Origin: a bacterium
GTDB taxonomy: Bacteria; Bdellovibrionota_C; UBA2361; CALJRW01
Assembly: GCA_031385045.1 (NCBI GenBank)
Contig: JANNBC010000024.1
Location: forward strand, 128,001 to 192,000
Length of the DNA stretch: 64,000 nt
Reading direction: 5' to 3'
Shown: positions 10,815 to 47,688 of the stretch, in pieces
How the letters are laid out: every line of letters begins with the position of its first letter
Numbering within the stretch: position 1 is the first letter of the stretch
Position numbers and translations under genes: made by a program
Notes under the pieces: generated by a model
What the model was told of the DNA's origin: nothing
The model's input: the letters and a program-made list of their open reading frames with translations, nothing else
The model's database searches: none

Positions 10815-10840
10815 TTTTTTAAAAACTTAGAGATTTTCAA

Positions 10841-12931: not shown

Positions 12932-12946
12932 ATTTATTAAGTATTT

Positions 12947-30382: not shown

Positions 30383-30401
30383 GTATCTAGATCTGAAATT
30401 T

Positions 30402-30893: not shown

Positions 30894-31123
30894 GAAACGT
30901 CCCAGAAAAATTTTTTTGCATTAAGCCAAAATCACCCAGCTAAACTCCCAGTTCCATTTGAGATCTGATATATTAACTATGACTTTGCTTGTAGTTTAAC
31001 AACAATACTGACTTTCCAATATCTTTGTGCAGCAAAGAGGATCAGTAACATTGCTAGACAATTGGATTATATGAACAACACAGAATAAATTAGACATTTC
31101 CAGTTCTCCTGTCAATTAGTGAA

Positions 31124-31231
31124 ATATAGTGTTCCTTTAAGTCTTTTCGCAAAGCGAAAAAAGCGGACACTATATCCCGCCGTAGCTATATCTAATTAAA
31201 AGACTTTTAATTAGATATAGCGAAGGAGGAT
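31124..31231. repeat. Tandem palindromic (REP/MITE-like) element
   Basis: Perfect 18-bp inverted repeat GCTATATCTAATTAAAAG-A-CTTTTAATTAGATATAGC (31185-31221), preceded by ATATAGTGTTCC...GGACACTATAT (31124-31175) enclosing TTTTCGC-AAA-GCGAAAA. Confidence 0.75.
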
Positions 31232-31277
31232 TCAGCGCATTATCAAACTTTATGGGTATGTTTTGAGATTCCTCTAT

Positions 31278-32027
31278 TTATGGCTTCCTACTTAACCGTA
31301 AAAAAACCGGCACTGTACTAAACCCAACAATAGAATCTGCTAATTTTCCATTCTGATAAAAATAATATTGAGTGGAACTACCTCCATCAAGGTTTAGGGC
31401 ATCTTGGCAAACAACTTCTTTGGATAATAAAATTCTTTGTAGGTTAGGAAAGCTAATGACTTCCGTTTTATTGGTAATATACAAAATTAATTCTCTTTCT
31501 TTATTTAGGCAGAGGCCGCTTCGTCGTTCTGCTAAATCAGCATTTTTCATTGATAGGATTTGACCTCCAGCAATGATCCTAGGACCAGCTTGGAGTGCCA
31601 AGTCATAGCTGGCTAGATGAGCAATAGGGAATTGATCACGGTGCTTAATTGCTAAAAAACCATTTCTTTTGACTAAGATGCCGGTCAGCACGCTACCACC
31701 CTGGTGCAGTTTATTCTGAATCTGACCATGCTCTAGAAGTAAACCTAGTGGTTTAAAATCTGTATCGAAAAAGCTGGCATTTACTAGGAGCTCAGTTGAT
31801 TTAGGAATTTCCTCTGTGGAATCATTAGATAACTTCTTAATACTGATATCAAATTTATTTAAGTTTGTTTTATAAAGAATTAAGCCTTCTTGCTCACGCT
31901 TCCAAAGATCCTCCTCTAGGAGAGACCAATCTGATGCCCAAGTTTGATTAGTGAATGCCATTATTAATAAGATCAACAGCAGTTTTTTCACATTAAGGTT
32001 GAAAGTTCTAAGTAAAATTGAGCCCAT
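31278..32027 (-). CDS. Phosphodiester glycosidase family (NAGPA/DUF2233-like) exported protein
   Basis: Signal peptide, NASFFD, QAGPR, RSGL, ALNLDGGSST. True start may be a few codons downstream. Confidence 0.8.
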   Translation of the reverse strand: MGSILLRTFNLNVKKLLLILLIMAFTNQTWASDWSLLEEDLWKREQEGLILYKTNLNKFDISIKKLSNDSTEEIPKSTELLVNASFFDTDFKPLGLLLEHGQIQNKLHQGGSVLTGILVKRNGFLAIKHRDQFPIAHLASYDLALQAGPRIIAGGQILSMKNADLAERRSGLCLNKERELILYITNKTEVISFPNLQRILLSKEVVCQDALNLDGGSSTQYYFYQNGKLADSIVGFSTVPVFLRLSRKP

Positions 32028-32158
32028 TGGTTTTTGTAAATTTACTCTTCCTGGAAAATGTTAGTAATTGTTCTCAATGCTAGCAATTTATCAACATTTG
32101 ACAAGTTAAACCCAAAAAATATTTTTCTTTTATCTGAAAAATATGGCATAATAAATTT

Positions 32159-32692
32159 ATGTCTTCAGATACTTTTAAAACTAAATTAGCTAAATTGATT
32201 CAAAAAAGTCGTAAGGCAATTAGAATCTATTCGGCGGTTGGGCGAGATTCAATCGGAAGACCAAGTAAGCCTTATTCGGATATGCAGTTAAAAGCTTGGT
32301 ATAATGTAAATGAAGAGTTGTTGATGTTTCTTCAGGAGGTAACTACAAAGCTTCATTTGCGTCAGGTAGCTAGTGAAATTTTAAAATATGCTCAGAAACT
32401 ATCCAGTCAGATTTCCCCTGAGCAGCAAAAACTCAATTCGGATCATCGCTTGTTAATTCAGTACACAGAATCTGCTGATTTCGTAAATTCAGCAAAATTA
32501 AGCCAAGAATTGATTGTCTTAAAGTCTCGAATTGAGGCTAAGAAGGCAGTGTTGCATGAATTGGAAGATTTATTGACTTCGGCGAATCTGAAATTGCCAA
32601 TTACTCATCAAATGAACGATGTTCCACAAGAATCATTAAAGATTACAGAATCTAAAATTATCCCTTTTAGAACTAAAAAAATTGGAATATAA
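32159..32692 (+). CDS. Hypothetical helical/coiled-coil protein
   Basis: 177-aa ORF with helical character and C-terminal KIIPF motif. Confidence 0.7.
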   Translation: MSSDTFKTKLAKLIQKSRKAIRIYSAVGRDSIGRPSKPYSDMQLKAWYNVNEELLMFLQEVTTKLHLRQVASEILKYAQKLSSQISPEQQKLNSDHRLLIQYTESADFVNSAKLSQELIVLKSRIEAKKAVLHELEDLLTSANLKLPITHQMNDVPQESLKITESKIIPFRTKKIGI

Positions 32693-32916
32693 TCAATTCC
32701 TTACTATAGTTACTTACAGTAAGGTTAGATCCAAATTGACCTGCAATTTTTGAATTTTTTTGCTCTACTTTCTTAGTTATAAAAATAGCTAGGGTAGTCT
32801 TAGTGTATAAGTCAGGGTTACTTTCGATCCATTTTGAAAATAATTAGTAGTTTTGTCAGGATCTCAGGCGTGAAGATTTGGGCAGTTAGAGAATAGGTGT
32901 TTAAGGAATTAAGTTT

Positions 32917-33456
32917 ATGGTGTCTTACGAAGATATAGAAGTAATTTTTTCAAGGATTACAGAAAAGTTTGATGATTCGATTCCAATTGGTGGACGTTGT
33001 GAAAGCAGTGTCTACTATCATACCTCGGACTTAACTGAAGAAGATCTAGATCGTTGTGCTGAATATGCAGTTGATCGTATTCGTAAGGTTTTAAATACAC
33101 AAAACGCGGACGTCTTTCTAAAGCTACCCTCGGAGCATAGTTTCTTTGCCGAAAGACTATTTCAAATTTACCGCGAATATTTACCCAATCCTGATTCTTT
33201 AATTTTTGATACTTACAGTCCAACTGCAATTACTAATGGAATGGGGGAGAAGTATCGGGGTCAAAATACAATTTTGATTAATGATGTAATTACAACTGCA
33301 AGATCAACTTTAGAGGCTCATAGCAAGGCAACGCTTCGTGGAATTCCAGTACTTTGTTGGGCAACATTAATTGATCGAACTTTTGGGCCAGGTCCTGTGC
33401 CAGTTGTTTCTGCTTTTACCGGTGCACCAGTTCGAGTTTTGACTAATATTTCTTAA
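32917..33456 (+). CDS. Degenerate type I phosphoribosyltransferase-like protein (PyrE-like)
   Basis: PRPP-loop-like ILINDVITTARST and PyrE-like LIDR; AAGGA SD upstream. Confidence 0.65.
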   Translation: MVSYEDIEVIFSRITEKFDDSIPIGGRCESSVYYHTSDLTEEDLDRCAEYAVDRIRKVLNTQNADVFLKLPSEHSFFAERLFQIYREYLPNPDSLIFDTYSPTAITNGMGEKYRGQNTILINDVITTARSTLEAHSKATLRGIPVLCWATLIDRTFGPGPVPVVSAFTGAPVRVLTNIS

Positions 33457-33460
33457 GTCA

Positions 33461-35377
33461 ATGTCTGGTAGTCAAATTATTTCCAAGGGTTCATTATTAA
33501 GTGAGGAGATAGTTTTCTGTGAGAATATCCTAAGTAAATCCGCTGTTTCCGGGGCTTTTCTTGGAGCTCTAAAGAGTTTTTATGGTGCAATTAGTCCTGT
33601 TGTTCTGCAGGGTAAACAATTAAAGGTCTTAAAGTTAACTAGAGCGATACCTGCTCAAGAAAAAATATTATTAACTCAATTAGAAAGTCGTTACCAAGAG
33701 CTTAGTAAATTCTATCCCAATCAGATTAACCAGTTTGGAAGTATTGGGGAATATTTTTATTGCCTACGATCTTTTGAGCGCAGCACACTCCCCGAATATT
33801 TAGAAGAGAATCATATTCGAGTAGCAGAGGCAAATTATTTTGTAACTAAAATCTTAAATTTAATTTTAGACTTAAAACGAATTAATTTCCCACACGGACA
33901 TATCAGTTTAAATAATTTAATTATTGATGAGAAGAATCTTAGCTTAGTTGATTTTGGTTTTGCATTTAGTAGTAGTAAGAGTCCGGGGGCTATGTTAGCT
34001 GAAGGTAACTACTTAGCTCCGGAAAGTAATCGGAGCTTAACATCTGATTTCGCCAGCGATATTTATTCTTTTGGGAAGATAATCAAATATCTTTATCGTG
34101 GGTTACAATGTCCGATCCCCTTGGATCTTCCAGATTTAATGTGTGATCCAGATCCTAAAAAGCGTCCTAATTTAATTGAAGTTAATAATAAGATTACTGA
34201 TACTTTTACTCAAAAGAGAAATCAGACAGAGCATTGGAGTAAGTCGGCAATTTTTACTAATGAATTAGATCCAAGCAAGCTCTATAAAGGATATCTTAGT
34301 CCAGCTATTCTGGAACAAATTCGTCAAGAATTTGCTAAGAGTATGATTCAAGTTCCGGTTAGTGCCGTCCCAGCTGTAGCTGTCTCTGCTAACGAACAAA
34401 GCGTACCTGCTATTTCTGTAGCTAAAGAATTTAAAAAGAATGATCTGAATTTTATGCTTACGGCAATTGCCGTTGTCAGTTTATTGTTAGTGGTTTATTT
34501 CTGGAGAAATAGTAATTCACCTGAGGTGCCTGAAACCCTGCCAAGTAATCAACAAACAATTAATAATTTACCAGTTGTAAATGGATTTGTTCCCGAGCCC
34601 GTTAAATTAACAGTACAATTCCTGCAACAAAATAAAATCACTCAAGCTCAAGATTATCTACAGATTCTTAGTGATATTTATAATGCTAATTATCAAAGTG
34701 GAAAGCTGACAGCTTTCATAAATCCCCTAGAGAACGAGCAGATTCAGTTAATTAAAGTCCAAAGCTTAGTTTTACTAGTTGCTAGTAACCCTAATTTATT
34801 AGATTTAATTTACCAAGACTTAACTAAGAGTAAGATTTTAGTTCGCTATTTAAATTGGTTTAAATCTAATTCAATTTTAGATTGGTCAACCGTTGATAAT
34901 CCAATTAAGTTAATGGTACTTTCTGGAAATATTCCTGATAGTATTCTTAATTTAGAATTTTACTTTGACTTAGCAAAGCATTTTGATCCAGAAATTAGAG
35001 AATCAAATCGCTTACCGCTTAATGCAAAAATTAGTAGTTCTGATCAGAAAGAATTTTATCTAGCAATGCTAGGTCAACTAGATCAGTTTGATCGCGATAA
35101 TTTAAACTTTTTAAATTTAGCTCTAACTAAAGATAAAGATTTGCAATTAGCCTTAATTTCGGAGTGGTTTGATAATACTAAGCCTAAGAATGAATTGGTT
35201 TTTAATTTAGTTTTGGCTAGGAAGAAGCCAGTAGAGGGAGAGGACTATTTTAGTTTTTATGCTGCGCGTTATTTAAAAGATTATCTAAGTACCTTGCCGC
35301 TTAGTGAATTAACTAAGCTAAAAAATCATCATGAAAAACAACTAAAGATTTTTTATGACATAAAAAAAGGAGGCTAA
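33461..35377 (+). CDS. Membrane-anchored Ser/Thr kinase-like protein, probable pseudokinase
   Basis: HGHISLNN, LVDFGFA, YLAPE, SDIYSFG, DPKKRP; central TM helix (MLTAIAVVSLLLVVYFW); helical C-terminal domain. Confidence 0.75.
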   Translation: MSGSQIISKGSLLSEEIVFCENILSKSAVSGAFLGALKSFYGAISPVVLQGKQLKVLKLTRAIPAQEKILLTQLESRYQELSKFYPNQINQFGSIGEYFYCLRSFERSTLPEYLEENHIRVAEANYFVTKILNLILDLKRINFPHGHISLNNLIIDEKNLSLVDFGFAFSSSKSPGAMLAEGNYLAPESNRSLTSDFASDIYSFGKIIKYLYRGLQCPIPLDLPDLMCDPDPKKRPNLIEVNNKITDTFTQKRNQTEHWSKSAIFTNELDPSKLYKGYLSPAILEQIRQEFAKSMIQVPVSAVPAVAVSANEQSVPAISVAKEFKKNDLNFMLTAIAVVSLLLVVYFWRNSNSPEVPETLPSNQQTINNLPVVNGFVPEPVKLTVQFLQQNKITQAQDYLQILSDIYNANYQSGKLTAFINPLENEQIQLIKVQSLVLLVASNPNLLDLIYQDLTKSKILVRYLNWFKSNSILDWSTVDNPIKLMVLSGNIPDSILNLEFYFDLAKHFDPEIRESNRLPLNAKISSSDQKEFYLAMLGQLDQFDRDNLNFLNLALTKDKDLQLALISEWFDNTKPKNELVFNLVLARKKPVEGEDYFSFYAARYLKDYLSTLPLSELTKLKNHHEKQLKIFYDIKKGG

Positions 35378-35391
35378 TGCCTCCTTTTTTT
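35362..35391. terminator. Bidirectional rho-independent terminator
   Basis: A7-GGAGGC-TAAT-GCCTCC-T7 between the convergent kinase-like and pilin genes. Confidence 0.85.
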
Positions 35392-35409: not shown

Positions 35410-35865
35410 TTATGGGTTTCCATTACCACCAAGGTTAGAGTTGGTATTGTTACTTTGACAGCCTGATAATACGTTTGTACCAAAGAAGGTATTTACTAAC
35501 GATCTCAGGATGAACGCACCAATCGCTACTGCTAAGAGACCCAAAGCAGCTTTGTACTGTCCGAAGGCAGCACTAACAATTGCTCCAATTCCCGCAATAA
35601 TCATAATCAAGGCACCAAATGCTCCCTCGATGAAGTCCAAGATAGCACAAATAATCGCAATAAATTGTCCTTGCTCGATGGTGAACTTGCTTGCTCCCTG
35701 ATTAGTCGCCAACGCTAAGTCAGCAACGCCTAAGTTAATCAACATTACACCTAAAAACAAATAAAATACCCTTTCGGCATTTTCACTTGGATTTTTTACT
35801 AATGTTCCTAGCCTTTGACTAGAAGTGAGATAAGTTTTGTTAAGTTTACTAATAATATTTTTCAT
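35410..35865 (-). CDS. TrbC/VirB2/TraA-like T4SS pilin
   Basis: Long leader ending ..DLALA, then two hydrophobic helices (GAFGALIMIIAGIGAIVSAAFG; AALGLLAVAIGAFIL); next to TraX, at the end of the T4SS locus. Confidence 0.7.
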   Translation of the reverse strand: MKNIISKLNKTYLTSSQRLGTLVKNPSENAERVFYLFLGVMLINLGVADLALATNQGASKFTIEQGQFIAIICAILDFIEGAFGALIMIIAGIGAIVSAAFGQYKAALGLLAVAIGAFILRSLVNTFFGTNVLSGCQSNNTNSNLGGNGNP

Positions 35866-35960
35866 TTAAATTTACTATGATAAAGTTTCGTTAAAGATTC
35901 ATAGTGTTTTCTTTAACCCTTAACTCTTAGTCTAGACTTAAAGCCCTGATCACTCAATCA

Positions 35961-36671
35961 TTAGAATGGATGTTCTAGTAGATATCTGATGAAAATTAAT
36001 AAAATTAAATGTACTGGGTAGTAAGAGTAAAAGAGATATTTCCAGCGACGCATAAATTCGAATTGATTGGGGATTCTGGAAGCAAGAAAGAAGATTAAAG
36101 GGAGGTAGCCAAGCAGGGCAACAAATGAGACAAGCGAGTTATTTAGGTAATAGGTTGTTAATAGAATATATAGAGCAAAATCAATCGTTCGGTGAATTAG
36201 GAAGGCGGTGATGGAAAGACCTAAAATAAGCCCGGCTAGTCCATATTCAAAGTAGATCGGGATTTCCAAATATCGTACTATGAGTAAAATACCCACAACT
36301 ACAACTATTACTGCATAATAATACCAGCTAGATTTTTGTATCAAGGCAGTGCTGGTTTTTAAGATCAGCCCTAAAATTCCCAAAGTAAAGAAAATATTTA
36401 ATAGAACTGACTGATCAAAAGCCAAGTAAAAAGGTAGTTGGGAGAGGATGCTAAAAATAAAAATACGGATTAGGTATTTTTTTGGATTTTGACTGTGAAA
36501 GAGGAAATTATAGGAAATTAAGAAAACAAAGAGGGGCATCGCAATCCGCCCAAGCTGAGTTCCAAAATTATCATAGGAGTGAAAAAGAATTTTTGTGGAA
36601 TGATCCAACGTCATACTAGCAAGAGCAACAAGCTTTAAAAAATTTAAATTTAATTTGCTTTCACTTGGCAT
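35961..36671 (-). CDS. traX: TraX-family membrane protein (pilin acetylase-like)
   Basis: LKLVALASMTLDH, GRIAMPLF, SQLPF, NIFFTL, FYSYYPVHL; multiple TM helices. Confidence 0.85.
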   Translation of the reverse strand: MPSESKLNLNFLKLVALASMTLDHSTKILFHSYDNFGTQLGRIAMPLFVFLISYNFLFHSQNPKKYLIRIFIFSILSQLPFYLAFDQSVLLNIFFTLGILGLILKTSTALIQKSSWYYYAVIVVVVGILLIVRYLEIPIYFEYGLAGLILGLSITAFLIHRTIDFALYILLTTYYLNNSLVSFVALLGYLPLIFFLASRIPNQFEFMRRWKYLFYSYYPVHLILLIFIRYLLEHPF

Positions 36672-36678
36672 GATTGAT

Positions 36679-37224
36679 TTAACCCTCCGCCTCCACCAAA
36701 AGTCCTGGAAAGATTTTTAGAGGGTCTAGTGCTTTTCCATTGCTTCTAATTTCAAAGTGTAAATGGGGACCAGTTGCCAGGCCAGTACTGCCGACTAAGG
36801 CAATGATTGCTCCTGCTTTTACATGAGTCCCAGGGGTAACTAGATTTTTACTATTATGACCATAATGACTAGAGGTACCGTCGGGATGAAGAATGACAAC
36901 AAGGTTACCATATCCAGAATAAGGATCGGCAAAGACTACTAGTCCACTAGCAATTGCTCGAATTGGAGAGGCTTGGGGCGCTGCCAGATCTAGTCCATCA
37001 TGGTGACGGATTGCTTTAGTTATCGGATGTTTTCTAGTGCCAAAGTTACTACTAAGCCTGGCATCCATTAAGGGGTAGATATAGGAAGTTTGTCCAGCAC
37101 TGTCTAAGGGCGGACTCTGCGATTCCACAGGAGACGTAATTATTTGTGTAAGGCTGATCAGTAAGAGAAGCTTAAGAATTACCTTTAATAAGTTTAAGGG
37201 CTCTTGCCTCGACTTCATGATCAT
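36679..37224 (-). CDS. M23-family metallopeptidase
   Basis: HDGLD (HxxxD), YGN, YGH, GSTGLATGPHLHFE; N-terminal signal/anchor. Confidence 0.92.
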   Translation of the reverse strand: MIMKSRQEPLNLLKVILKLLLLISLTQIITSPVESQSPPLDSAGQTSYIYPLMDARLSSNFGTRKHPITKAIRHHDGLDLAAPQASPIRAIASGLVVFADPYSGYGNLVVILHPDGTSSHYGHNSKNLVTPGTHVKAGAIIALVGSTGLATGPHLHFEIRSNGKALDPLKIFPGLLVEAEG

Positions 37225-38353
37225 ATCCTTGTACCTTTACAGTTGTGGTCTCTTCGTTAAAACCATTTGGCACGGATTCTGTTACATCTGCTGAGATCCA
37301 AGCGCGCACACCGTTTGGCGCAATAACTCTAAGCCAAGCGTCTTGCTTCTGTTCTACAACAAGTCGTGAACCTCCAGCAAGCTCCATTAATGGCGAATGA
37401 TTCATTCCTGGGCCAGTGCGAAGATTCGCTTTATCAACAGCTACTTTGACAACAGGCATATCGGTATTTTCTTCGACAGGAGCAGATTGAACTATTTTTT
37501 TAGCTTCTGCCGGAGCAGTTTTTTTATCTTCACGGTTAACTGGTTTTAAACCTAAAACTTTGCGATTCTGATCATCTAGGATAGCAGCTAGTCTTTCCAC
37601 TTCAGTTTCTGCAAACATTAATTTTAGATTTAGTTTATCTATTTGTCCTTCAAATTTCTGTGTTAAGTCCGACTCAATAGTTTTGTATCCTTGATTTGCT
37701 ACCGTTAATTGGGAGATTTGATCAGCTTGAGATTTTGCTTGCTCGCTAAGTGTTTTAATTTGCTCTTCGGATTGATTGCTTAAGGAGATTTTCATTGATT
37801 CCAATTCCTTGGCAAAATCCGCCCGAATTTTGGCAATCTCTTGATCTTTATTTAGCAGTTCTTGATTTTTCTTAGCGATTGTTTGTTCTAAGTTAGTAAT
37901 ATCAGTTTTAACTTTATCAGCAATCGAATTATTCTCTGCTGTTTTAGTTGTAGCAATTGTTTCTGACTTCACTTCGGCAACAGCTGTCTTAGTAGTAGGT
38001 TTAATAGTCGGTTTAACAATAGCAACTTCTTCTTTCTTGTTCTCAACTGGCTTTAAGGTTTGTTGTGTCTCAATTTTAGCAGTTGGGGGAGTCGTGTTTA
38101 CAACTGCTAATTGTTTTTTCTCGATGACAACTGTTTTTTGACTAGCTGTCACTTCGGAATCTTTAATTTTTCCAGATAGAGAGCTTTCCAGAGCTTTTAG
38201 TCTAGCCTCAGCCTGATCTAACTCTTTAACATTTAAATTAAAATCGTAGGAAGCTTTGACAGTATTATTTCCATTAACAGCTGGAGTATCAGCGACAACA
38301 GTCATTGCTATTGCTAGTGAAGGAATTAAAGCCCATGATAATTTTTTCAACAC
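37172..38353 (-). CDS. Exported coiled-coil protein with C-terminal bacterial SH3 domain
   Basis: Signal peptide, long coiled coil, ANLRTGPG...WLRV..PNGVRAWI SH3b motif; GTG 38353 follows GGAGG (track start 38374). Confidence 0.8.
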   Translation of the reverse strand: MLKKLSWALIPSLAIAMTVVADTPAVNGNNTVKASYDFNLNVKELDQAEARLKALESSLSGKIKDSEVTASQKTVVIEKKQLAVVNTTPPTAKIETQQTLKPVENKKEEVAIVKPTIKPTTKTAVAEVKSETIATTKTAENNSIADKVKTDITNLEQTIAKKNQELLNKDQEIAKIRADFAKELESMKISLSNQSEEQIKTLSEQAKSQADQISQLTVANQGYKTIESDLTQKFEGQIDKLNLKLMFAETEVERLAAILDDQNRKVLGLKPVNREDKKTAPAEAKKIVQSAPVEENTDMPVVKVAVDKANLRTGPGMNHSPLMELAGGSRLVVEQKQDAWLRVIAPNGVRAWISADVTESVPNGFNEETTTVKVQGYDHEVEARALKLIKGNS

Positions 38354-38383
38354 AAAACCTCCAAATAAAGTCAAGACGACGTA

Positions 38384-38890
38384 TTAATCGGGTTGACTAC
38401 TTCTAAGACGGGCATCTCTTTCACGCTCCAACATGTCTTTAATTTCATATGGAGCATCGATTCCATATAATAAGACCTCGTTATCTGCCGAAGCTGCTGT
38501 GCCAATCTCGATTGATCCTACATCTAACATTCTTTCAATGATTGTTTGATTGATATCAATCCCCCTTATATCTTCATATCGGACACGATTGACTGATTGC
38601 TTCATAGAAAGTCGTCCCGAACAAGATTCAATTCCACGATTGTCTACTCGGTAGATGACATTATAAATCTTAAAGATGCATGAAAATAAATAAGAAATTG
38701 GAATAAGCCATAAAACAGGGAATGCAAGGTAAACCTGATAGCCAGCAAAGCTAAATAAGTAGCCATGGAGGGTTAAAAAGGTAAATTTATTAGATAAAAC
38801 TATGCAACCTACTGATAATATTAGGAATACTGCTATGCGCGTAACCTCTGAGCGCCAAACTTTATGTATAATGACCTCTGATTTAATCAT
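38384..38890 (-). CDS. Membrane protein with bacterial PH (bPH_2) domain
   Basis: Two TM helices then YRVDNRGI...G.L...VRYEDIRGIDINQTIIERMLDVGSIEIGTA. Confidence 0.75.
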   Translation of the reverse strand: MIKSEVIIHKVWRSEVTRIAVFLILSVGCIVLSNKFTFLTLHGYLFSFAGYQVYLAFPVLWLIPISYLFSCIFKIYNVIYRVDNRGIESCSGRLSMKQSVNRVRYEDIRGIDINQTIIERMLDVGSIEIGTAASADNEVLLYGIDAPYEIKDMLERERDARLRSSQPD

Positions 38891-38895
38891 CTTTA

Positions 38896-39150
38896 TTAAC
38901 GAAACATTGCTTCCAGGTCTTTTAAGGAGGAAGTGCCTTTGGAGCCATTTTTAGTCCCAGTCTCCTCTTGGGTGGGCTGAGTGTCTTCCATTTTTGGTAT
39001 GAAATTAGGTTTTTTACCTTCTTTTACTAATTCTAGCTTTCCACCAGAAAGTCTAAGAATAGTAAAGGCAATTACCATTAAAATGATGGTAGTTAAGTGG
39101 AGCTTATTGGTAAAAGGGCTAATAATATTTTTTGTGCTAATTAAGGCCAT
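38896..39150 (-). CDS. Small membrane-anchored hypothetical protein
   Basis: 84 aa, one hydrophobic helix, co-oriented in the operon. Confidence 0.6.
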   Translation of the reverse strand: MALISTKNIISPFTNKLHLTTIILMVIAFTILRLSGGKLELVKEGKKPNFIPKMEDTQPTQEETGTKNGSKGTSSLKDLEAMFR

Positions 39151-39281
39151 AAATTAAATTTAATTATAAGGGGTTTTGATACTTATTTAGTCTTTCAAAG
39201 CCACCTTATCTAGAATAGCCTGACTTTTATTAAAATTCAATTAACTCTTCCTATTGGGTTAAATTTAACCATATAGATGGT

Positions 39282-39611
39282 TTATTTGTCCTGTTTTACA
39301 TCTTGAGGTGCTTCATATTTCCAGCGTCCCTGACGAATTTCCACAACTTCTTCATGGGCCGGACGGTAATAGGTTCCTTCTGGGTCTAATCCTGGTGGGA
39401 CTTTGACCACATCAATGATTGGAGGTTCCCAGACATATTCTACCGCACCCGGATCTTTGATCGTAATTGTTTCTACTTTTTCTTTCTCTACAAACACAGC
39501 TTCTGTGGTGTGCTTGCTAGAGCAGGAAATAATCCCTGTCAGTAAAACGAGTAAACTTAAAAATGTTAATTTTTTCATAAGCTCAAAGTTATTAAATATC
39601 TTAGGATTCAT
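39282..39611 (-). CDS. Small lipoprotein in T4SS locus
   Basis: Lipobox IISC; C-terminal VPPGLDPEGTYYRPAHEE...GRW loosely TraV-like; overlaps traC end (alternative ATG 39578). Confidence 0.65.
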   Translation of the reverse strand: MNPKIFNNFELMKKLTFLSLLVLLTGIISCSSKHTTEAVFVEKEKVETITIKDPGAVEYVWEPPIIDVVKVPPGLDPEGTYYRPAHEEVVEIRQGRWKYEAPQDVKQDK

Positions 39612-42342
39612 CTTCTAGTCTTTGCCAAGTGCTAGTTCGATCCAGAACTTTTTCTTCTGGAACTTGAGCGGGCTCTGCTTCTTGAGTTTCAGCTTTAAAT
39701 TTTCCTCTGACTGATTTGGCGCCAAGCGGTGCCATCTTGATTGCTTGAAGGAAAGCTTGAACGTGATCGCCATTACAGCGTTTCACTAAGTCCGCATAGA
39801 ATTGATTATCATCCCCGTTGTTTGTGCTGGCCCAATAAAAGGATGCTTCTAGTGGAAGCACTAAGGCAGATTCCCCAATATCTGAAAGCAGATAAAATTG
39901 TGACTCCACGCCCATTACTGTTTTTAGTTGAGTAATCACGCTGGATTGTTGTTCCGATAAGTTGAATGCTTTCGCAGTTAGGTGGAATTTACTTGGATCT
40001 TGTTTTAAGAATATTTTATGAGCGGAGTTCTGAACAATTGCTTGTCCACCTTCTCCCACATAGAAATCTTCCGCTGACTGAGATGCTGCAATAACCATAC
40101 CCTTTCTTTTTCGGTATAATCTAAAAGCAGTTTCAATTGTTTTAGCAGAAGTCTTACCAATTAGATCGTGAGCCTCATCAAAGACTAGTAGTTTTCGGGT
40201 ATCTAATTCATTTGGATCGTTCATTACTTCATCGGCCCAAAGCATTGCTACTTTTAAGAAAACCCTTTGTAGATCAGGGTTACGACTGAGAGATTTTAAA
40301 TCAAATACAATTAGTCTTTCTGTCAGCTCTAGCGCCCCAGCACGATCAAAGAAATTTGAGTAAATACCATCGCCATAATAGTCACTGATTAGGATGGAAA
40401 CTCTTTGTCGTCGTAATGCTTCTTCTTCGTTTTCATCAACTTTTTTTGGTGCGCGTAAAACAGAAATTACATCACTTAAAATAAATTCTCGGCGACGAGC
40501 CCCGTTATAATAAATACGATGAGCTTCAATCAGGGAGTCACGGACAGCACTACGATCCATTCGATCTGGTTGAGTTGTGGCATCTGTCGCCATATCTAAA
40601 ATGACATCAACCGCCATATCAATTAAATCTTTATAATCCTCATTGGAGTTATCTCCTGGTGTTTTACCAAGCCGGGATAAGAAATTCATGGCTGGTGCTT
40701 TAGCGGGAGTTGCTTCGTATATTTTTCCACCAAAGATATGAGCTAATCTTTCAAATCCGCACGGTTGCCCAGTCATACCCTTATCAAAGATAAAGGCGAT
40801 TGGTGCTTTATCTACAATCTCGCCATCAAGTTTTTGAGAATAATGACCGCGCATTAATGTAATAATTAAGAAGCAAAGAAGGTATGATTTACCAGCTCCA
40901 GAGACCCCACTGATTAGCACGTTTGGCGCCATGTTAGAGTCATATAGATCGAAGCCAACTAGTTCTCGGTTCCAAAGACTTGGTAAAATAAAAAGCGGAT
41001 TTTTACTGCCGTGCCAGTTGCCCCAAATTGGAAATAATCTAACTGCGCGAGAGGATCTCATCATTGTTGTCCAGCCCTCACCATCTGTTGTTGGATCGTA
41101 ACAACCAGGTAGGGTGTTCATTAATACTCCCATATCCGAAATTAAATGAGTCATACCACGGGCACCATTTAGTTGTGGGAAAGCTGCCACTGCCTCAGAC
41201 CCAGCACGAATAACCTCATCGGCCGTTTCACAGAAAAATGTTTGGTGAACACCGACTCGGACAATTTGTGAAGTATTGCTGTAGAGTTCTTGGCGTGCAG
41301 CTCGAATGCTACCAATCTGAGTTTGAACTTTTTGGTTAGATCTTCCACCCATTGTCCGTAAGCGCAGACCCATAAATCCATCAATAGTGTCTAATCTTTT
41401 GATCTGTTCTTGAATCGAATCTTTGGAGAAGGTAACTGATAGCAAGTTTTCATATGGTGTTGATTGCAGAGGTGTAATCATTAATGGCAAACAGCGCTTC
41501 GGGGGCTTAACCATCGAAACAGTTCTAAAATAGCGACCATCTTTTTTTATAATTCCATCTTCCGGATGTTCAGCTGGAGTTTCGGAAATTTGATTGGCAA
41601 GTAAGTCAAAGGGATCGTATAAGGGCACTGGCACTGCTGTGTTTCTGCCATGACGAGACTTAGAACCTTTAGTGCTACGGCGGTTTAAGATTGGGTAAAG
41701 TAAGTCAATTAAATCTTGGGCATGAAGCATGCGCGGTGTCATGCCATTGTCTCTTAGCTTGACAACACTACCTTCAATTACTCCACGAAATTTAGAAGCA
41801 TAACCTTGATATTCCTTACGACGCATGGTTGCACTTACACCAACTTTACCTTTTAGTAATAGCTCAATAGTTCTTTGAATTTGTTGTCTCATTCCAATCG
41901 CTCTCCAAGGGGGATCGAAGCGAAAAGCGACAATTAATCTCTGATGTCGGGGTCGACGATGCAAGGCATGGTTTCTGGCCGCAGTGCGAATTGATTTAAC
42001 CCAACGACGAGCCATCCATCCGGCAACTCCAGAAGTTGGAAATGTTGTTAAGGAGGAGCGTAATAAATTTTCAACGTCAAAAGTAGTTGTCCAGATCATT
42101 TGCATGCTGATACTTGGTTCGAAAGAATCAACCATCTCTTGAATGCTATCTGAAATATGAAAGGCCTCTTGATCTGATACTGTTACCAAGATCTTGGGCA
42201 TTACTTCCCACATCGACCATAGTGAGGCATCGGAATTAATAAACAAGCCGTTATCCTCGTCATACTTAGAATAGGCTAGTAGCGAGTTAAAGAGCTCTTC
42301 GTCTTGGTACAGTCGCTTTCTGGTAATTCGGTTAATACTCAT
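39601..42342 (-). CDS. traC: VirB4/TraC-family T4SS ATPase
   Basis: Walker A GVSGAGKS, IFDKG, VFDL, Walker B LVFDEAH, RLYRKRKG...ASQS, IVQNSAHKIFLKQ. Confidence 0.9.
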   Translation of the reverse strand: MSINRITRKRLYQDEELFNSLLAYSKYDEDNGLFINSDASLWSMWEVMPKILVTVSDQEAFHISDSIQEMVDSFEPSISMQMIWTTTFDVENLLRSSLTTFPTSGVAGWMARRWVKSIRTAARNHALHRRPRHQRLIVAFRFDPPWRAIGMRQQIQRTIELLLKGKVGVSATMRRKEYQGYASKFRGVIEGSVVKLRDNGMTPRMLHAQDLIDLLYPILNRRSTKGSKSRHGRNTAVPVPLYDPFDLLANQISETPAEHPEDGIIKKDGRYFRTVSMVKPPKRCLPLMITPLQSTPYENLLSVTFSKDSIQEQIKRLDTIDGFMGLRLRTMGGRSNQKVQTQIGSIRAARQELYSNTSQIVRVGVHQTFFCETADEVIRAGSEAVAAFPQLNGARGMTHLISDMGVLMNTLPGCYDPTTDGEGWTTMMRSSRAVRLFPIWGNWHGSKNPLFILPSLWNRELVGFDLYDSNMAPNVLISGVSGAGKSYLLCFLIITLMRGHYSQKLDGEIVDKAPIAFIFDKGMTGQPCGFERLAHIFGGKIYEATPAKAPAMNFLSRLGKTPGDNSNEDYKDLIDMAVDVILDMATDATTQPDRMDRSAVRDSLIEAHRIYYNGARRREFILSDVISVLRAPKKVDENEEEALRRQRVSILISDYYGDGIYSNFFDRAGALELTERLIVFDLKSLSRNPDLQRVFLKVAMLWADEVMNDPNELDTRKLLVFDEAHDLIGKTSAKTIETAFRLYRKRKGMVIAASQSAEDFYVGEGGQAIVQNSAHKIFLKQDPSKFHLTAKAFNLSEQQSSVITQLKTVMGVESQFYLLSDIGESALVLPLEASFYWASTNNGDDNQFYADLVKRCNGDHVQAFLQAIKMAPLGAKSVRGKFKAETQEAEPAQVPEEKVLDRTSTWQRLEDES

Positions 42343-42345
42343 ATT

Positions 42346-42813
42346 TTACTTGGCAAATTGTGGTACTATTCGCTCTGCTGCTAATAACCGAACGTCTTTA
42401 TTAATAGTATCGATCATTACCTTAACATTATTTTCTTGTTCGATTAAGACCCTAAGTTCCTCAGCTGTTAATACTTTATTTACTGAATATTTTCGTTCCT
42501 CTAGGCTTGGAGCGCAATAAAAATGATATTTCAAGGAAGTTGCTAAGGCCTGACCAACTTCACAGAGACTTGTATCTGGCAAATCATAAAAGAATTTTTT
42601 GATAATAATTTTCCGACTAGGATTACTGGCAAACTCTGTATAACCGGGGGAAGAAGATCTAACTGAACGAACGGGATAAAATACTGGAGGACGCTTTGTC
42701 TGTGTCTCTGCTATTGAATATGGTCTCTCAGGTAATGGTTCAACAGTCTTAGCTGAAGTGCAAGCAAATATCCCTAGAGAAAAAATTAAAAAAACCAGTA
42801 ATTTTTTAAACAT
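42346..42813 (-). CDS. T4SS-associated lipoprotein, possible DotD/secretin-N0-like domain
   Basis: Lipobox IFAC; C-terminal ~75-aa alpha/beta segment; between traV-like and traC. Confidence 0.55.
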   Translation of the reverse strand: MFKKLLVFLIFSLGIFACTSAKTVEPLPERPYSIAETQTKRPPVFYPVRSVRSSSPGYTEFASNPSRKIIIKKFFYDLPDTSLCEVGQALATSLKYHFYCAPSLEERKYSVNKVLTAEELRVLIEQENNVKVMIDTINKDVRLLAAERIVPQFAK

Positions 42814-43241
42814 TACTTTCTAATATAAGGCAAATTAGATGTATTAGTATCACCACGATTTAATTGAGATTCAAGTTCAAAAGCATCTTGCAGATTCCAA
42901 CGATCGTCTAGAATTTTTATGTAATAATAATGCGCAGGAATTAAATCGCCATAAGAGTTTAAGTGATCCGGTACCCACATCAAGCGGACGACAGCGGGCT
43001 TCATTACAGGATTTACTGGTTCTGGTGGCATAGCAGCATTGTAACTTCCTACTTGCTCTAAGACCTCACGAGCCTCTTTTCCTTTGTTGCTCTCAGGATT
43101 CAGTGCGTTGTCGTTAGCGGAGCCTTTGAGTGCTATGTCAGATGGTGGTTCGTAAAAGGGATTGACTACTTTACCAATTGTGCCACAGGAGCAAAGCAAG
43201 CAGACAAAACTAAATAGTATAATTTTCAATTTCATAATCAT
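42813..43241 (-). CDS. traV: TraV-like (VirB7) outer-membrane lipoprotein
   Basis: Lipobox LCSC; P.VVRLMWVPDHLNSYGDLIPAHYYY...W matches the TraV C-terminal pattern; lies after traB. Confidence 0.75.
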   Translation of the reverse strand: MIMKLKIILFSFVCLLCSCGTIGKVVNPFYEPPSDIALKGSANDNALNPESNKGKEAREVLEQVGSYNAAMPPEPVNPVMKPAVVRLMWVPDHLNSYGDLIPAHYYYIKILDDRWNLQDAFELESQLNRGDTNTSNLPYIRK

Positions 43242-43345
43242 TTAACCGTTAACTTTCACCAAGTTAATTTTGTAACTTGGCCTAGTCTAAAACCTCAAAT
43301 CTAAGAAGATTTATATTATCTAAGAGAGGTTTGAATTTAAAATCA

Positions 43346-44488
43346 CTAATCTAATGATGCAAATGTTAGATTAGGGTCTTCCATTGATTCAAACAAGCCA
43401 TCAAGTTCAACATTCTGCGAAAAAACTGCTGTCGCACTACGACCTGAAAGTACTTTTACATGAGGCACCAGCATCTTAGAGCGTTCTTTAATATATCCAC
43501 TCCAGTTACTACCTGCCTGTTGCACACCCCTGCCAACTCCATATTCTAAAGCATCACCAGTAACTGCTTGGCTAAATCCACCCATTCCATTAGAATTAGT
43601 CGAGACTTGAGCACTGGAAATACCTTGACCCATTCCAGCTACAGTTCCAGCAATTAATTCTCCTGCTAGAACCTTACCAATTGGATCGATTAAAATACCT
43701 TCCATTCCTCGAATGCCATCTTCGCCTACGATCCAACCATCAACATCAACTACTTTACGAGATCCATCTGGATAGCGCATGCTCATTTTATTAAGTCTAA
43801 ATAGTGCTCTTTGATCAATTAAAGATCCAGTAGCTGCAGCTAAAAGTCTTGCTTCCCCTAATGGCAGTGTCACGCCATCTGGGCCGGTAACATCACTGTC
43901 TAATTGAAAAACAACAGGGAAGGGATCTCCTTCAATTGGAGCATTAACCCCAGCTAAAAGTTTTAAGCGTACAGAGTCACCAGCTGCAATAAAAGCAACC
44001 TTCTTGTCTACAGGCTTTACCGGTGGTGCTACAAGGGCAGCACTATCTTCTTCCCAAATTGATTCTAGTGTGTTGGCATCAAGATTCTCAGGAGTAACTG
44101 CTGCCGCGTTGTAGCCTTTGACAGCATCCGATGATTCTTCCAAGCCACGAACACGCTCAATAACTTTTGCTAAAATTTTAGCAGTTTGCTCTTCAGTTTC
44201 GGTTGTTCTTTCCAAGATCTTTTGTTTGTCGGTTTCTAATTCTTGAATTCGACGTTCTAATTCAGCTTTTTGAGTTAAGTTAAATTCTAATAATTCATTA
44301 CTTGCTTTGTCTGCAGTAGTTGCACCAGTTGTAGAATTGATATCAGCTACAGGTTTATTGCTATATCTTCGAGGTTTATTATCTGCAAACATTCCAATTA
44401 AAATAACCAATACTAATCCAGCAAGAAGTATTTGCCATTTGCGGTCATGTTTAACTAAATTTACAATATCATTAAGCTTCTGCTTCAT
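43346..44488 (-). CDS. traB: TraB/VirB10-like T4SS core protein
   Basis: N-terminal TM, coiled coil, FIAAGDSV...LLAGVNAP, RALFRL, GEDGIRGMEG, PHVKVLSGRSATAVF; ATG 44488 follows GGAGG. Confidence 0.85.
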   Translation of the reverse strand: MKQKLNDIVNLVKHDRKWQILLAGLVLVILIGMFADNKPRRYSNKPVADINSTTGATTADKASNELLEFNLTQKAELERRIQELETDKQKILERTTETEEQTAKILAKVIERVRGLEESSDAVKGYNAAAVTPENLDANTLESIWEEDSAALVAPPVKPVDKKVAFIAAGDSVRLKLLAGVNAPIEGDPFPVVFQLDSDVTGPDGVTLPLGEARLLAAATGSLIDQRALFRLNKMSMRYPDGSRKVVDVDGWIVGEDGIRGMEGILIDPIGKVLAGELIAGTVAGMGQGISSAQVSTNSNGMGGFSQAVTGDALEYGVGRGVQQAGSNWSGYIKERSKMLVPHVKVLSGRSATAVFSQNVELDGLFESMEDPNLTFASLD

Positions 44489-44721
44489 TATAACCTCCAA
44501 AACCCATTTTTTGCCTCATTTAAACTTAATTTTGGCAAATTAATTAGGAAATTCGCTCATTCCTAAAACCTATCGGTAATTTCTCTCAAATTGCTTCTAA
44601 CGATTCCAGTCAGAAACTTTCTTTGTCTGTTTATCGACTAAAAATTGATTTTATTTAGTCTAAAAAACAAATCACCGTTATTTAAAATCTGATACTAACG
44701 TAATATTTTCAATAACTTAAG

Positions 44722-45504
44722 CTATTGAGCTTTTGTAATAACATAAATCTTGGCTCGATGAGAGGCTGCAAGCTGTTGCTCGCTAGTCATCGGTGAAGGG
44801 GATAGTTCCCACCTTTCAGCCATAATCGCTTTTGTACCATCCACTCGGAATGTGGCAGGGTTAATTTGTTGGTTACTAGTTAATAAGTTTTCTACATTTA
44901 AGACATAACCCCAAAAATCTGCACCCATATAAATGCGATCGATGGTTGCCATCATTGTTCCGTCATTTAATATTACTTCACCGGCATGTTGATCACTAAT
45001 TCGGTATCCAGCAATTTTCTTTTTGCCAAATTCAACTGCTAAAACTAATTCTTTCATTAGACCACTAACCGAATTGTTTTGAGCTTCTGGAAATTGTTTG
45101 CGGTAGTATTCTGGCATTTCCTCTTCTTTAGGGATAATAGCAGCCATGCCTGCATTGTCATTAATTGAAATAATATCATCACGCGGATTACTTGGATCGG
45201 CGGGCTTAATTCGTAGTGAATATGATTGCTCGTTTTCTAAGGTTACAATCAGGGCTTCTCCATTTGTACTTAATTCTTCTGTTCCAAAAACAATCAGGCG
45301 TTGCTCTTTTTTATCTACGGTAAGTGGCGCTCCTGTTCTTTTGAATCCTGATTTAATTTCACTGGAAAAGTTAATCTGAGTTGGCTCTCCTGGTGTAACA
45401 TAGATAGTGACTTCAGTATTTTGATACTCAATTTCTCTAGCTACTGCTGTGCTAACAAAGATTAATAGAGATAGTAACGATAGAGTTGTATATTTGATGC
45501 TCAT
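44722..45504 (-). CDS. traK: TraK/VirB9-like T4SS protein
   Basis: Signal peptide, beta-rich N-domain (PGEPTQINF, SYSLRIKP), TraK-like C-domain; position in L-E-K-B order. Confidence 0.7.
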   Translation of the reverse strand: MSIKYTTLSLLSLLIFVSTAVAREIEYQNTEVTIYVTPGEPTQINFSSEIKSGFKRTGAPLTVDKKEQRLIVFGTEELSTNGEALIVTLENEQSYSLRIKPADPSNPRDDIISINDNAGMAAIIPKEEEMPEYYRKQFPEAQNNSVSGLMKELVLAVEFGKKKIAGYRISDQHAGEVILNDGTMMATIDRIYMGADFWGYVLNVENLLTSNQQINPATFRVDGTKAIMAERWELSPSPMTSEQQLAASHRAKIYVITKAQ

Positions 45505-45506
45505 AA

Positions 45507-46175
45507 TTACTTAATTTTTGATAATTCTAAATTGGTAACAACAATACCGTAGGGATTAAATTTATTCCTTGGCACTGTCGTTAAGTAGACGGTATGCTTG
45601 ATCTCTTGACCTTCATACTCACGTCCTGCGATAAATCTTACCTGTTCTCCAATAAATGTGACACTGACATTGTTTTGATCAATAGCCTGAAAAATAGTTT
45701 TCTCATTATTTGGAAAATATAATTGAGTCCTTTGGGTTTGAACAATCAAATTGAGTTCTGTATTCAACATGTCGGTTTCAAATCTACTAAGCATTGGTTC
45801 AACTAAATAGTTGGATGCTTCGTTAAATTGTCGGGCAGCGATTTTATACTGATACGTTGAAATTAGATTAACGAAATCATTGGCAACACTAATAAACTCA
45901 GTCTGTGGAATCTCTCCAGCAGGATAGTAGCCTGGTAGTGGTTTTGCAGGCACATTTAGGTTAATTTCTTGGTTAGAGTAGAAAAAAATTGCCGCAATAA
46001 TTGCAATCGAAGTTACTAAGATTTGTAATAAAGCAAGACCACGCCAGAGTAAGGCTTGCTCGCGGTAGTTCTCCCAAACTCTAACTGTATCATTCTCCGT
46101 CCGTGCTTCGCGAAATGACGTATCATCAATAATCTGTTTGACTTGTTTCTGAATTTTTTGCGATGGCTTATTCAT
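45507..46175 (-). CDS. traE: TraE/VirB8-like bitopic T4SS protein
   Basis: Single TM helix followed by periplasmic domain ending NPYGIVVT. Confidence 0.7.
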   Translation of the reverse strand: MNKPSQKIQKQVKQIIDDTSFREARTENDTVRVWENYREQALLWRGLALLQILVTSIAIIAAIFFYSNQEINLNVPAKPLPGYYPAGEIPQTEFISVANDFVNLISTYQYKIAARQFNEASNYLVEPMLSRFETDMLNTELNLIVQTQRTQLYFPNNEKTIFQAIDQNNVSVTFIGEQVRFIAGREYEGQEIKHTVYLTTVPRNKFNPYGIVVTNLELSKIK

Positions 46176-46569
46176 TAGAGTATTTCTCCTCGTAGATTAA
46201 ATCAAACATGGAATCTAAATCTAGATGGTGATAATCTTTTTTTTCATCAACCTTACGAATCGGCCCACCACTCCATAATGGTTGAATACTAGCAGGTTTA
46301 GGGATTCCAGGTGGGGGAAGCCCAAGTGCAATCATAAACTGATTTGCCACGCCTCTTGTGCCATCCGGAAATTGCTTTCTTAGAGCTGCCATTCCAAAAG
46401 TTATTCCGCATAAGGTGCAAATAAAGATTGGAGTCCCACCTACAGGGCTAATTTGAAAAGCACTACCAATTAACATGGTCATGATAAATCCAGCGATCCA
46501 TTCAGTGACGTTAGCCCCTACAAATGTCCAGCCTTCATTTAAGCCATTAATAACTTCCCCGTTATCCAT
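46168..46569 (-). CDS. Small two-TM protein in the TraL/VirB3 position
   Basis: Two hydrophobic helices, coupled to traE; assignment mainly positional. Confidence 0.55.
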   Translation of the reverse strand: MDNGEVINGLNEGWTFVGANVTEWIAGFIMTMLIGSAFQISPVGGTPIFICTLCGITFGMAALRKQFPDGTRGVANQFMIALGLPPPGIPKPASIQPLWSGGPIRKVDEKKDYHHLDLDSMFDLIYEEKYSNE

Positions 46570-46573
46570 GAAT

Positions 46574-46915
46574 TTACTTTAAATTATCAAAAATTTTAAT
46601 ATCAGGGTCGTTCATCACCCCTTCTTTGGAGATACGTGGTTGAGGACTAATAACAACAGTAAGATCGTCAGCAAGTTGGCCAAGTTTGATTCGCCATTGC
46701 TCTTGATCCAAAAGTGTTTCAGCACTGGCTGTACTGGAGCCTCGATCAAACTCTTTTAGTGCCATCATTAATAATTGACGAGCGCGGGAATAATGGCCAA
46801 CGGCTTTGGACAAGGTTGCTCCTTCAGCGACTTGAATACCTTCGGTTTCAGGTTCTGCAAAGACAGGAGGTGCAACTAGGAATAATGAGAGTAAAACCAG
46901 ATAAAACTTATTCAT
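46574..46915 (-). CDS. Exported hypothetical protein, first gene of the T4SS operon
   Basis: Signal peptide ending VFA; helical mature region. Confidence 0.7.
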   Translation of the reverse strand: MNKFYLVLLSLFLVAPPVFAEPETEGIQVAEGATLSKAVGHYSRARQLLMMALKEFDRGSSTASAETLLDQEQWRIKLGQLADDLTVVISPQPRISKEGVMNDPDIKIFDNLK

Positions 46916-47202
46916 TTTGGGTCTAGAATATTATGTAAATTTCAAAAAATATTTGCCAATATCGTTAAATTTACTGCGGGCAGTAGCGTGGAATAAACCA
47001 ATGTACTGCCACTAAAACAAAATAAATAGGGTTAAAAAGAATGAATTTTGGCAATGACTTTCGAATAACCCTATATAGCTATCAGATAATAGCTTAGAAA
47101 TGATTCACTAAACAGATTAAATTATTCAAAAATTCACAAATCTAACTATTGATTTTAATAAGCTACTGATATAACTTGAGAACTTGCTTTGAGAGGTTTT
47201 AT

Positions 47203-47688
47203 ATGTATATCGGCGGAATCACATTTCATATCAATAAATCGTTTGCTAACTTGCAACTAGTTCCAGAGAATCGTGGCTTACGGATTGTTTACAAGCCAGT
47301 AATTAATAATGTTGAGGTGACTGAGCACCTAGGATTTATAGATCTATTTTTACCAATCGATGCTGTCGGCGGACTCTGGGCTACAACTAAAGCATTTCTA
47401 TATGCCGTTGAGTCACTTGATGAAAATATTATTTTACAGAGTAAAGAAGCGGGGGAGAACCCCAACGATATTTTAATTAAACTTTATCGTGATAAACCAC
47501 TTGGTGATCAAGGAAAACTTAATGGGCATGAAAGTTGCTGGTTAAGGATTGTTAACGGTCGGAGCGAAGAAGAGCGTCGTAGAATTAAATTAGGACCTCG
47601 TGATTTGCTTTGCTTAGAATTAGCTTGTCAGAGTGTTATGACAATTGCTGGCGCAACAGCCCAACATAATCCACAAAAAATTTCTTAA
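47203..47688 (+). CDS. Hypothetical protein divergent from the T4SS operon
   Basis: GAGAGG SD precedes ATG 47203 (track start TTG 47176). Confidence 0.7.
   Translation: MYIGGITFHINKSFANLQLVPENRGLRIVYKPVINNVEVTEHLGFIDLFLPIDAVGGLWATTKAFLYAVESLDENIILQSKEAGENPNDILIKLYRDKPLGDQGKLNGHESCWLRIVNGRSEEERRRIKLGPRDLLCLELACQSVMTIAGATAQHNPQKIS

Follow-up and report, generated by a model that had tools for sequence, protein, structure and literature searches.

Chromosomal type IV secretion systems (T4SSs) that lack a relaxase and an integrase and retain a coupling protein are described as exapted (Guglielmini et al., PMC3548315), and relaxase-less T4SSs with a coupling protein typically export proteins and need that protein (PMC4027160). 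Relaxase-less cases of the F class (mating-pair formation class F, MPF_F) were single genomes in the former survey, one of Aquificae and one of Protochlamydia. The rvh T4SS of the Rickettsiales was acquired once and inherited across a deep lineage, has duplicated components and was proposed to have killed bacteria at first (PMC9352585). Here, we analyse a 64,000-nucleotide stretch, hereafter the window, of contig JANNBC010000024.1 (G000:C54:128001-192000) from an uncultured bacterium of the class UBA2361, phylum Bdellovibrionota_C; G000 is the window's own genome (2.83 Mb, 95% complete), G001 its sister genome of the same genus, and other G-numbers are relatives within the class. We read the operon at 35410-46915 of the window as part of a domesticated, split F-like T4SS for contact-dependent protein delivery, with a probability of roughly 55%, building on gene content, near-universal presence, purifying selection and the linkage of modules in relatives, all observed directly.

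Like MPF_F as known from F, pED208 and the SXT/IncC branch, the system has the traL-E-K-B-V...C gene order, an F-type TraC, the TraG_N family, a TraF-like thioredoxin, probable TraW, TraU and TrbC, and TraX; TrbC and TraW are fused in the SXT/IncC branch, and one relative (G047) shows a W-C fusion as in a Halomonas plasmid. Unlike MPF_F, it is chromosomal, occupies four sites and occurs phylum-wide, its TraC is ~23% identical, and no relaxase or TraN was found in it; additionally, it has DotD-like and second TraV-like lipoproteins, bPH, SH3 and M23 genes, a Whirly-fold gene and, in most genomes, two coupling ATPases. Membership of MPF_F is partly borne out, with TraC, B, K, V, E and G in agreement and L, A, F, H, W, U and TrbC assigned by position or weak matches.

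In contrast to the single-genome, relaxase-less MPF_F cases of that survey, the present system is fixed across a whole phylum. Its nearest evolutionary parallel is rvh, which shares deep inheritance, duplicated components (arrays of TraG genes recall the rvh duplicates) and the absence of a conjugative role; rvh is P-type (VirB-like), whereas no effectors are known for the present, F-like system. As in Legionella Dot/Icm and the killing T4SS of Xanthomonas citri, where DotD and VirB7 contribute an N0-domain lipoprotein to the outer-membrane core, such a lipoprotein is present here as a predicted fold only; unlike in Dot/Icm, the VirB4 is F-type, with no I-type (DotO/TraU) model among nine NCBIfam matches. 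The system descends from the F class and works like an exapted, relaxase-less T4SS. A search by titles and abstract starts returned no published description of it, and the system tables of surveys could list relatives.

The locus is inherited and chromosomal

The VirB4-type ATPase TraC was found in 95 of the 96 genomes of the class and in all 73 high-quality ones, with a single locus in each, broken into two pieces in nine of them, and, for the main matches, 57–72% identity outside the genus. A phylum-wide search returned this class alone, with a TraC locus in 78/78 well-assembled genomes; the closest plasmid TraC is ~22–25% identical. Among 33 loci from 30 relatives, which underlie the counts out of 33 given below, gene order is kept from a 113-aa open reading frame (ORF) at the start of the operon through a 155-aa lipoprotein gene (27–30 loci per gene), and the five genes after traC recur in 21–25 loci and the pilin gene in 12, some of the misses being due to contig ends or the ORF filter. 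Seven genomes from other orders show identical gene order.

Mean pairwise identity over 27 genomes is 68% for TraC and 72% for RpoB. A first-pass annotation of the window, made from the letters and a list of ORFs, had suggested comparing the VirB4 phylogeny with that of the species, and the outcome is mixed: patristic distances of TraC and RpoB correlate (r 0.75, 27 genomes) and the two trees, which omit the incomplete G025, G019, G020 and G030, share 9/24 splits against a random maximum of 3, but strict congruence is not shown, and the conflicting splits are weighed below. Between G000 and G001, dN/dS is 0.02–0.15 for 12 of 16 genes, dS being saturated in the other four. The locus is inherited and chromosomal, not mobile, and the genes of the cluster are under purifying selection.

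An integrated conjugative element, or a decaying remnant of one, might account for the F-like gene order and for a TraH-position gene that is split in this genus, yet this reading is scarcely credible, being already largely refuted by the distribution of one locus per genome in 95/96 genomes. Purifying selection is strong, the split is identical in both genomes of the genus and the modules occupy four chromosomal sites. No tRNA lies in the 64-kb window, no att-like flanking repeat within 30000-52000, and no integrase, relaxase or coupling protein was recognised among the window ORFs (42 scanned against Pfam, the remainder read by eye), a result that holds for these 64 kb and not for the whole genome. 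The GC content in 2-kb windows across the locus is 0.34–0.41 versus ~0.37 for the contig, and the third-position GC of the genes is 0.23–0.36 against a genome 5–95% range of 0.23–0.34 (five genes slightly above, one slightly below). The earlier view of a domesticated, chromosomal locus is upheld by its presence in 78/78 well-assembled genomes, by purifying selection and by the lack of a detectable relaxase in G000 (below). Also upheld is the statement that the missing tra genes, a relaxase and an integrase are not recognisable within the window; the patchy distribution that it had named as contrary evidence is not seen.

Gene content of the core operon

The 15 co-oriented ORFs at 35410-46915, all on the minus strand with intergenic gaps of -53 to 221 bp, and the strong terminator that closes them are present as first described. 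The core order is the F-type traL-E-K-B-V...C, TraX and a pilin end the operon, and two genes have no counterpart in the F order, namely the first one and a 155-aa lipoprotein gene that separates traV from traC. Family matches of the window proteins come from Pfam and NCBIfam, and orthologues from relatives were matched to Pfam for some of the genes.

46574-46915, minus: 113-aa exported protein, first gene of the operon (29/33 relative loci)
46168-46569, minus: membrane protein at the TraL/VirB3 position (position, size, two hydrophobic segments)
45507-46175, minus: TraE/VirB8-like protein (5/8 orthologues match PF05309, two over cut-off, best E 1.5e-6)
44722-45504, minus: TraK/VirB9-like protein (TraK_C E 1.9e-6; TIGR02756 E 3.5e-5)
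43346-44500, minus: TraB/VirB10 (TrbI E 1.8e-14; NF010289 E 2.8e-15)
42813-43241, minus: TraV lipoprotein (PF09676 E 0.0016; lipobox; 4/4 orthologues match, two over cut-off)
42346-42813, minus: 155-aa lipoprotein with a predicted secretin-N0 domain, like DotD and Xanthomonas VirB7 (fold evidence)
39601-42342, minus: TraC/VirB4 ATPase, Walker A and B intact (TIGR02746 E 2.8e-52, below the equivalog cut-off)
39282-39611, minus: second TraV-like lipoprotein, 109 aa (hhalign to the TraV family P 85.5%, E 5.7e-6)
38896-39150, minus: small bitopic membrane protein (one hydrophobic segment; 23/33 loci)
38384-38890, minus: membrane protein with a bacterial PH domain (bPH_2 E 1e-8; 25/33 loci)
37172-38374, minus: exported coiled-coil protein with an SH3b domain (SH3_3 E 2.4e-8; 25/33 loci)
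36679-37224, minus: predicted M23 peptidoglycan endopeptidase (PF01551 E 3.8e-34; HxxxD and HxH motifs; 21/33 loci)
35961-36671, minus: TraX/TrbP-family acyltransferase, inserted before the pilin gene (PF05857 E 3.9e-31)
35410-35865, minus: probable pilin, VirB2/TrbC/TraA-like (PF04956 E 0.0058 only; three hydrophobic segments)
35362-35391, both strands: bidirectional intrinsic terminator (13-bp hairpin, -18.2 kcal/mol, z -5.63, 0/200 shuffles as stable)

Most of the earlier gene names hold by family match (TraC, TraB, TraK, TraV, TraX, M23, SH3 and bPH_2), and TraE holds via its orthologues, the window's own protein having no direct family match. TraL and the pilin are named mostly from position and topology: 0/20 orthologues of the 46168-46569 protein match the TraL family and hhalign to plasmid TraL gives a P of only 1.8%, so that position, size and hydrophobic segments carry the name, and the pilin, present in 12/33 relative loci as 16 copies and sometimes with two to three copies per locus, is a probable one. 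For the 113-aa protein, no meaningful match was found in Pfam, NCBIfam or PHROG. Walker A of TraC is intact in 27/27 orthologues. The terminator, which a consensus terminator scan did not list, is common to the operon and a convergent Ser/Thr kinase gene (33461-35377).

The lipoprotein encoded before TraC is predicted to have a DotD/secretin-N0 fold. In Atlas, DotD clusters lead among the named ones (score 0.93, 22/30 matches), the best Foldseek match is a chain of the Legionella Dot/Icm outer-membrane core (E 7.2e-4), and VIA gives a Z of 9.7 (rmsd 2.1, 75 aligned), equal to other N0 domains; DotD itself is a VirB7-type core subunit (PMC12857230). The 109-aa lipoprotein after TraC is, by profile comparison, a TraV paralogue, with control pairs at P <=8% among those listed and two tandem copies in 4/7 loci from other orders. 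Closer inspection ruled out C25:15714, which had been considered as one more TraV paralogue. Accessory subunits once thought specific to the lineage are, judging by homologue searches, class-wide, and TraX alone is genus-specific: its family occurs in 4/96 class genomes, the two strong matches being G000 and G001, both at this locus, which points to a gain directly before the pilin gene.

Further modules lie elsewhere in the genome

The first-pass annotation had called the system reduced, without a coupling protein or TraF, G, U and W. This description no longer applies, because most of the 'missing' parts appear, by homology and position, to lie at three other sites of the same genome.

G000:C46:14785-17163: stand-alone, 792-aa VirD4-type coupling ATPase (PF02534 E 7.6e-38; Walker motifs)
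G000:C5:20430-27037: TraF-like thioredoxin, TraH-position gene and 1129-aa TraG-family protein (profile and position)
G000:C54:261641-269506: probable TraW-TraU-TrbC module with a transglycosylase, six genes, ~70 kb beyond the window

The VirD4-type coupling ATPase was found in 89/96 class genomes (one match only weak) with a dN/dS of 0.021, and its divergence from G000 tracks that of TraC (Spearman 0.77 over 27 genomes, kin among them not being independent). Its residues ~690–790 (L063:2935-3243, G000:C46) form a highly conserved C-terminal domain, a candidate for substrate recognition, that has no Pfam match; stand-alone or extra copies of this domain occur in many relatives and none in G000. 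The gene lies 2.6 kb before a tRNA-Leu, after which an integrase-led island begins (G000:C46:19949-35175, partly L086), with genes that we take from their sequences to be integrase-like, primase-like and restriction-modification-like. The island is absent from the same site in G001, which has the same coupling gene and tRNA-Leu with different genes beyond, and the idea that the coupling gene is island cargo was rejected.

Retention of this ATPase also bears on whether the machine could serve only to attach or to make contact with cells, as a pilus or adhesion organelle that translocates little or nothing. Pilin genes in two to three copies at some loci, the recently gained, pilin-modifying TraX and the retained candidates for F pilus-extension genes would suit such an organelle; a pure pilus, however, would need no coupling ATPase, and this one has been kept with intact Walker motifs, under the selection given above and in step with TraC, so we regard the pilus reading as improbable.

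In the second module, the TraF-position protein has a thioredoxin fold, and TraF models match it only weakly (E 0.03–0.17). The name TraH is given by position and is unproven: 0/60 members of the TraH-position family match Pfam TraH, with an E of 0.021 to one plasmid TraH, and the gene is split in two in both G000 and G001. The TraG-family protein was found in 88/96 genomes; the G000 copy matches the family hidden Markov model (HMM) at E 4e-207, and 11/14 family members match PF07916 (TraG_N), three over cut-off, the G000 copy not being among them. Tandem arrays of five TraG paralogues occur in four genomes of other orders. In G061 (L154, C76), the TraH-position and TraG pair is duplicated in tandem, with a further TraG copy on another contig.

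The third module includes a transglycosylase (SLT E 2.4e-5) and three genes, probably TraW, TraU and TrbC, that are found again beside traF in relatives, either all together or only some of them. Direct matches of the G000 copies to these families were not significant; in G047, however, the middle-family protein is accepted by the Pfam TraU model (27.1 bits), and the next gene there fuses the other two families (hhalign P 96.7%). The suspicion that this G047 match belongs to a foreign element was dropped after inspecting its neighbours. As a single query, the 518-aa TraU-position protein gave matches in 3/96 genomes, which provides no class-wide count of the module. Of the loci compared, none but those of G000 and G001 contain a 709-aa and a 345-aa gene of this module (L215:9641-15017, G000:C54:261641-267017), both without a family match.

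Linkage in relatives ties these scattered modules together: in G003, the core operon follows without a break on genes W, U, F, H and G; G009 has traF-H-G next to the coupling gene, which in G021 precedes a pilin gene and in G039 is 5 kb away from the start of the operon. The ATPases diverge much more slowly than the extracytoplasmic parts. Pfam searches of G000 for TraH, TraG_N, TraN and TraU returned nothing, and for TraF only sub-cut-off thioredoxin matches; these blanks are not evidence of absence, because TraG and probable TraU copies were later found by other routes. Single plasmid proteins as queries recovered TraB and TraV only, and a profile search for TraN, of the same kind that missed TraG, gave 0/78 genomes.

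A Whirly-fold neighbour and a second coupling module

Upstream of the operon lie two features outside the coordinates first described.

46916-47202, no strand: divergent intergenic region, in many relatives the site of a ~680-aa membrane protein and a second coupling ATPase
47203-47688, plus: 161-aa protein with a predicted Whirly fold (pLDDT 88.6), divergent from the operon

The product of 47203-47688 is modelled with a Whirly fold and is a probable single-stranded nucleic acid binder: the best Foldseek match is PBF-2 (E 1.7e-4), and VIA gives a Z of 13.7 for MRP1/MRP2 (rmsd 2.9, 125 aligned) and 12.9 for StWhy2 (rmsd 2.8, 133 aligned). The predicted fold is thus like that of the Whirly, MRP1-MRP2 and PUR single-strand-binding proteins (Z 12.6–13.7), whereas the protein is only 9–12% identical to known Whirly-fold proteins, is bacterial and is linked to a T4SS coupling module, a link that was not found in the literature by titles and abstract starts. 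No sequence match was obtained in plasmids or among PDB sequences. The gene is present in 93/96 class genomes with a dN/dS of 0.023, and it is detached from the locus in several relatives.

In 15/33 relative loci, a gene for the ~680-aa membrane protein occupies the traL/Whirly interval, and in 13 the second coupling ATPase is next; among loci with full flanks, the second ATPase lies within 10 kb of traC in 15/23 and the Whirly-fold gene in 11/23. The second ATPase, with best matches to SXT TraD and conjugative TrbC, was found in 90/96 genomes and not in G000, G001, both g25 genomes, G031 and G051, and neither HMM nor tblastn searches revealed a trace of it or of the ~680-aa gene in G000. The ~680-aa protein had no relevant match in Pfam, NCBIfam, PDB or PHROG, and no domain was noted among the 120 listed of its 167 homologues; its identification as DotM/TrbA or a relaxase received no support from family, PDB or PHROG searches, no DotM match being found. 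This genus is a derived form, in which the second coupling module has been lost, the TraH-position gene has become split and TraX has been acquired.

For the relaxase itself, none of six families (MOB F, P, H, C, Q and V) was detected in G000, and none passed the cut-off in three other well-assembled genomes. G001 carries two TrwC (MOB_F) genes on separate small contigs (L204, L205; C14, C1), each with its own coupling gene and one unit with stop codons; these units may be mobilisable and make use of the resident machine. Searches with strict short-motif patterns gave no ComEC or HUH motif and found a DprA-like gene. The original description of the locus as lacking DNA-transfer genes is supported as to the relaxase in G000 and weakened by the adjacent Whirly-fold gene.

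Movement of DNA is the main rival to protein delivery. The machine would then serve host-controlled chromosomal conjugation, DNA release or uptake, with a nickase that escaped recognition or with none; the Whirly-fold protein would coat single strands, and the second coupling ATPase and the ~680-aa protein would be a DNA-processing arm. Consistent with this are the near-universal Whirly-fold gene and its linkage to the locus, the second ATPase with its conjugative best matches, the retention of TraF and TraG with probable TraW, TraU and TrbC of F conjugation, the conflicts of the TraC tree at deep nodes and the insensitivity of profiles here, which could hide a nickase; Helicobacter pylori ComB, for DNA import, and the gonococcal genetic island (GGI), for release, provide precedents (PMC3548315). 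On the other hand, G000 shows no relaxase of the six families and the TrwC genes of G001 are on separate small contigs, the second ATPase was not found in genomes of this genus or of g25 while selection on the core persists, and the Whirly-fold gene, detached in several relatives, may be a housekeeping neighbour. We consider DNA movement possible, though unlikely.

A doubtful but related view is that of a two-channel machine, in which one coupling ATPase would feed proteins and the second, with its ~680-aa partner and the Whirly-fold binder, would move chromosomal DNA without a known relaxase. If this were true, the second arm would have been dropped by this genus and independently by g25 while the machine was kept, a natural knockout separating both functions.

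A model for protein delivery

In the protein-delivery reading, a very divergent complete F-like T4SS would have become fixed in the ancestor of the phylum, which consists of one class, and would later have been scattered over the chromosome. Judged by homology, TraB, TraK, the two TraV-like lipoproteins and the DotD-like lipoprotein would form an enlarged outer-membrane core, TraL, TraE, TraC and TraG would form the inner-membrane part, the M23 peptidase and the transglycosylase would open the wall, the pilin would form a pilus and the stand-alone VirD4-type ATPase would recruit substrates. Because no relaxase was found, these substrates would be proteins, passed on contact into prey, host or competitor cells, and the fast-changing TraG, TraU-position and TraH-position proteins may adapt the machine to one partner or another. 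Contact with partners that change is consistent with the N0 lipoprotein, with the TraG arrays and with the contrast between fast outer parts and slow ATPases. A contact-based lifestyle is also consistent with a family of 25 paralogues that resemble type IV pilins in their N-terminal motif.

Several points weigh against this reading. No substrate has been identified, and in 2012 only MPF_T and MPF_I were known to deliver proteins, according to the survey (PMC3548315). Pfam missed the TraG of G000 itself and could equally have overlooked a relaxase that has diverged strongly. The Whirly-fold gene is under selection as strong as that on TraC and adjoins the second coupling ATPase in many relatives, and 12 pairs of well-supported TraC and RpoB splits conflict, mostly on deep short branches. 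Finally, the DotD-like clusters are labelled 'DotD/TraH family', so the N0 fold is not diagnostic; the TraH of that label belongs to conjugative IncI plasmids.

Genomic surroundings

Pfam confirmed RibD and RibBA in the wider flanks of the locus, where a further gene is presumably ileS, as named from its motifs. The downstream neighbours, a PRTase-like 179-aa gene (58–62% identity within the order) and the Ser/Thr kinase gene (window 29888-33456 and 33461-35377), are kept in several relatives. At 6189-14971, four paralogous proteins of 561–700 aa, three of them encoded in tandem, combine N-terminal ankyrin repeats with a PcfJ-like domain; they are possible substrates or unrelated, and no further copies were found in G000. 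A GspK-like gene at 62805-63848 is part of a cluster for type II secretion or a type IV pilus, which runs on past the window.

Significance

Here the F-type class would have undergone a deep domestication; the 2012 survey (PMC3548315) had no demonstrated case of protein-only delivery by this class. The known set of T4SS parts would grow by the DotD-like and second TraV-like lipoproteins in an F-type core, the two coupling ATPases and the Whirly-fold protein, none of which turned up as such in the literature searched. Locus-based scanners will under-call such systems, whose modules lie apart and have diverged beyond the reach of standard profiles. A near-universal machine with an ATPase conserved almost to the degree of RNA polymerase must play a central part in the life of these uncultured bacteria, and it offers a handle on their lifestyle, be it predation, host contact or gene exchange.

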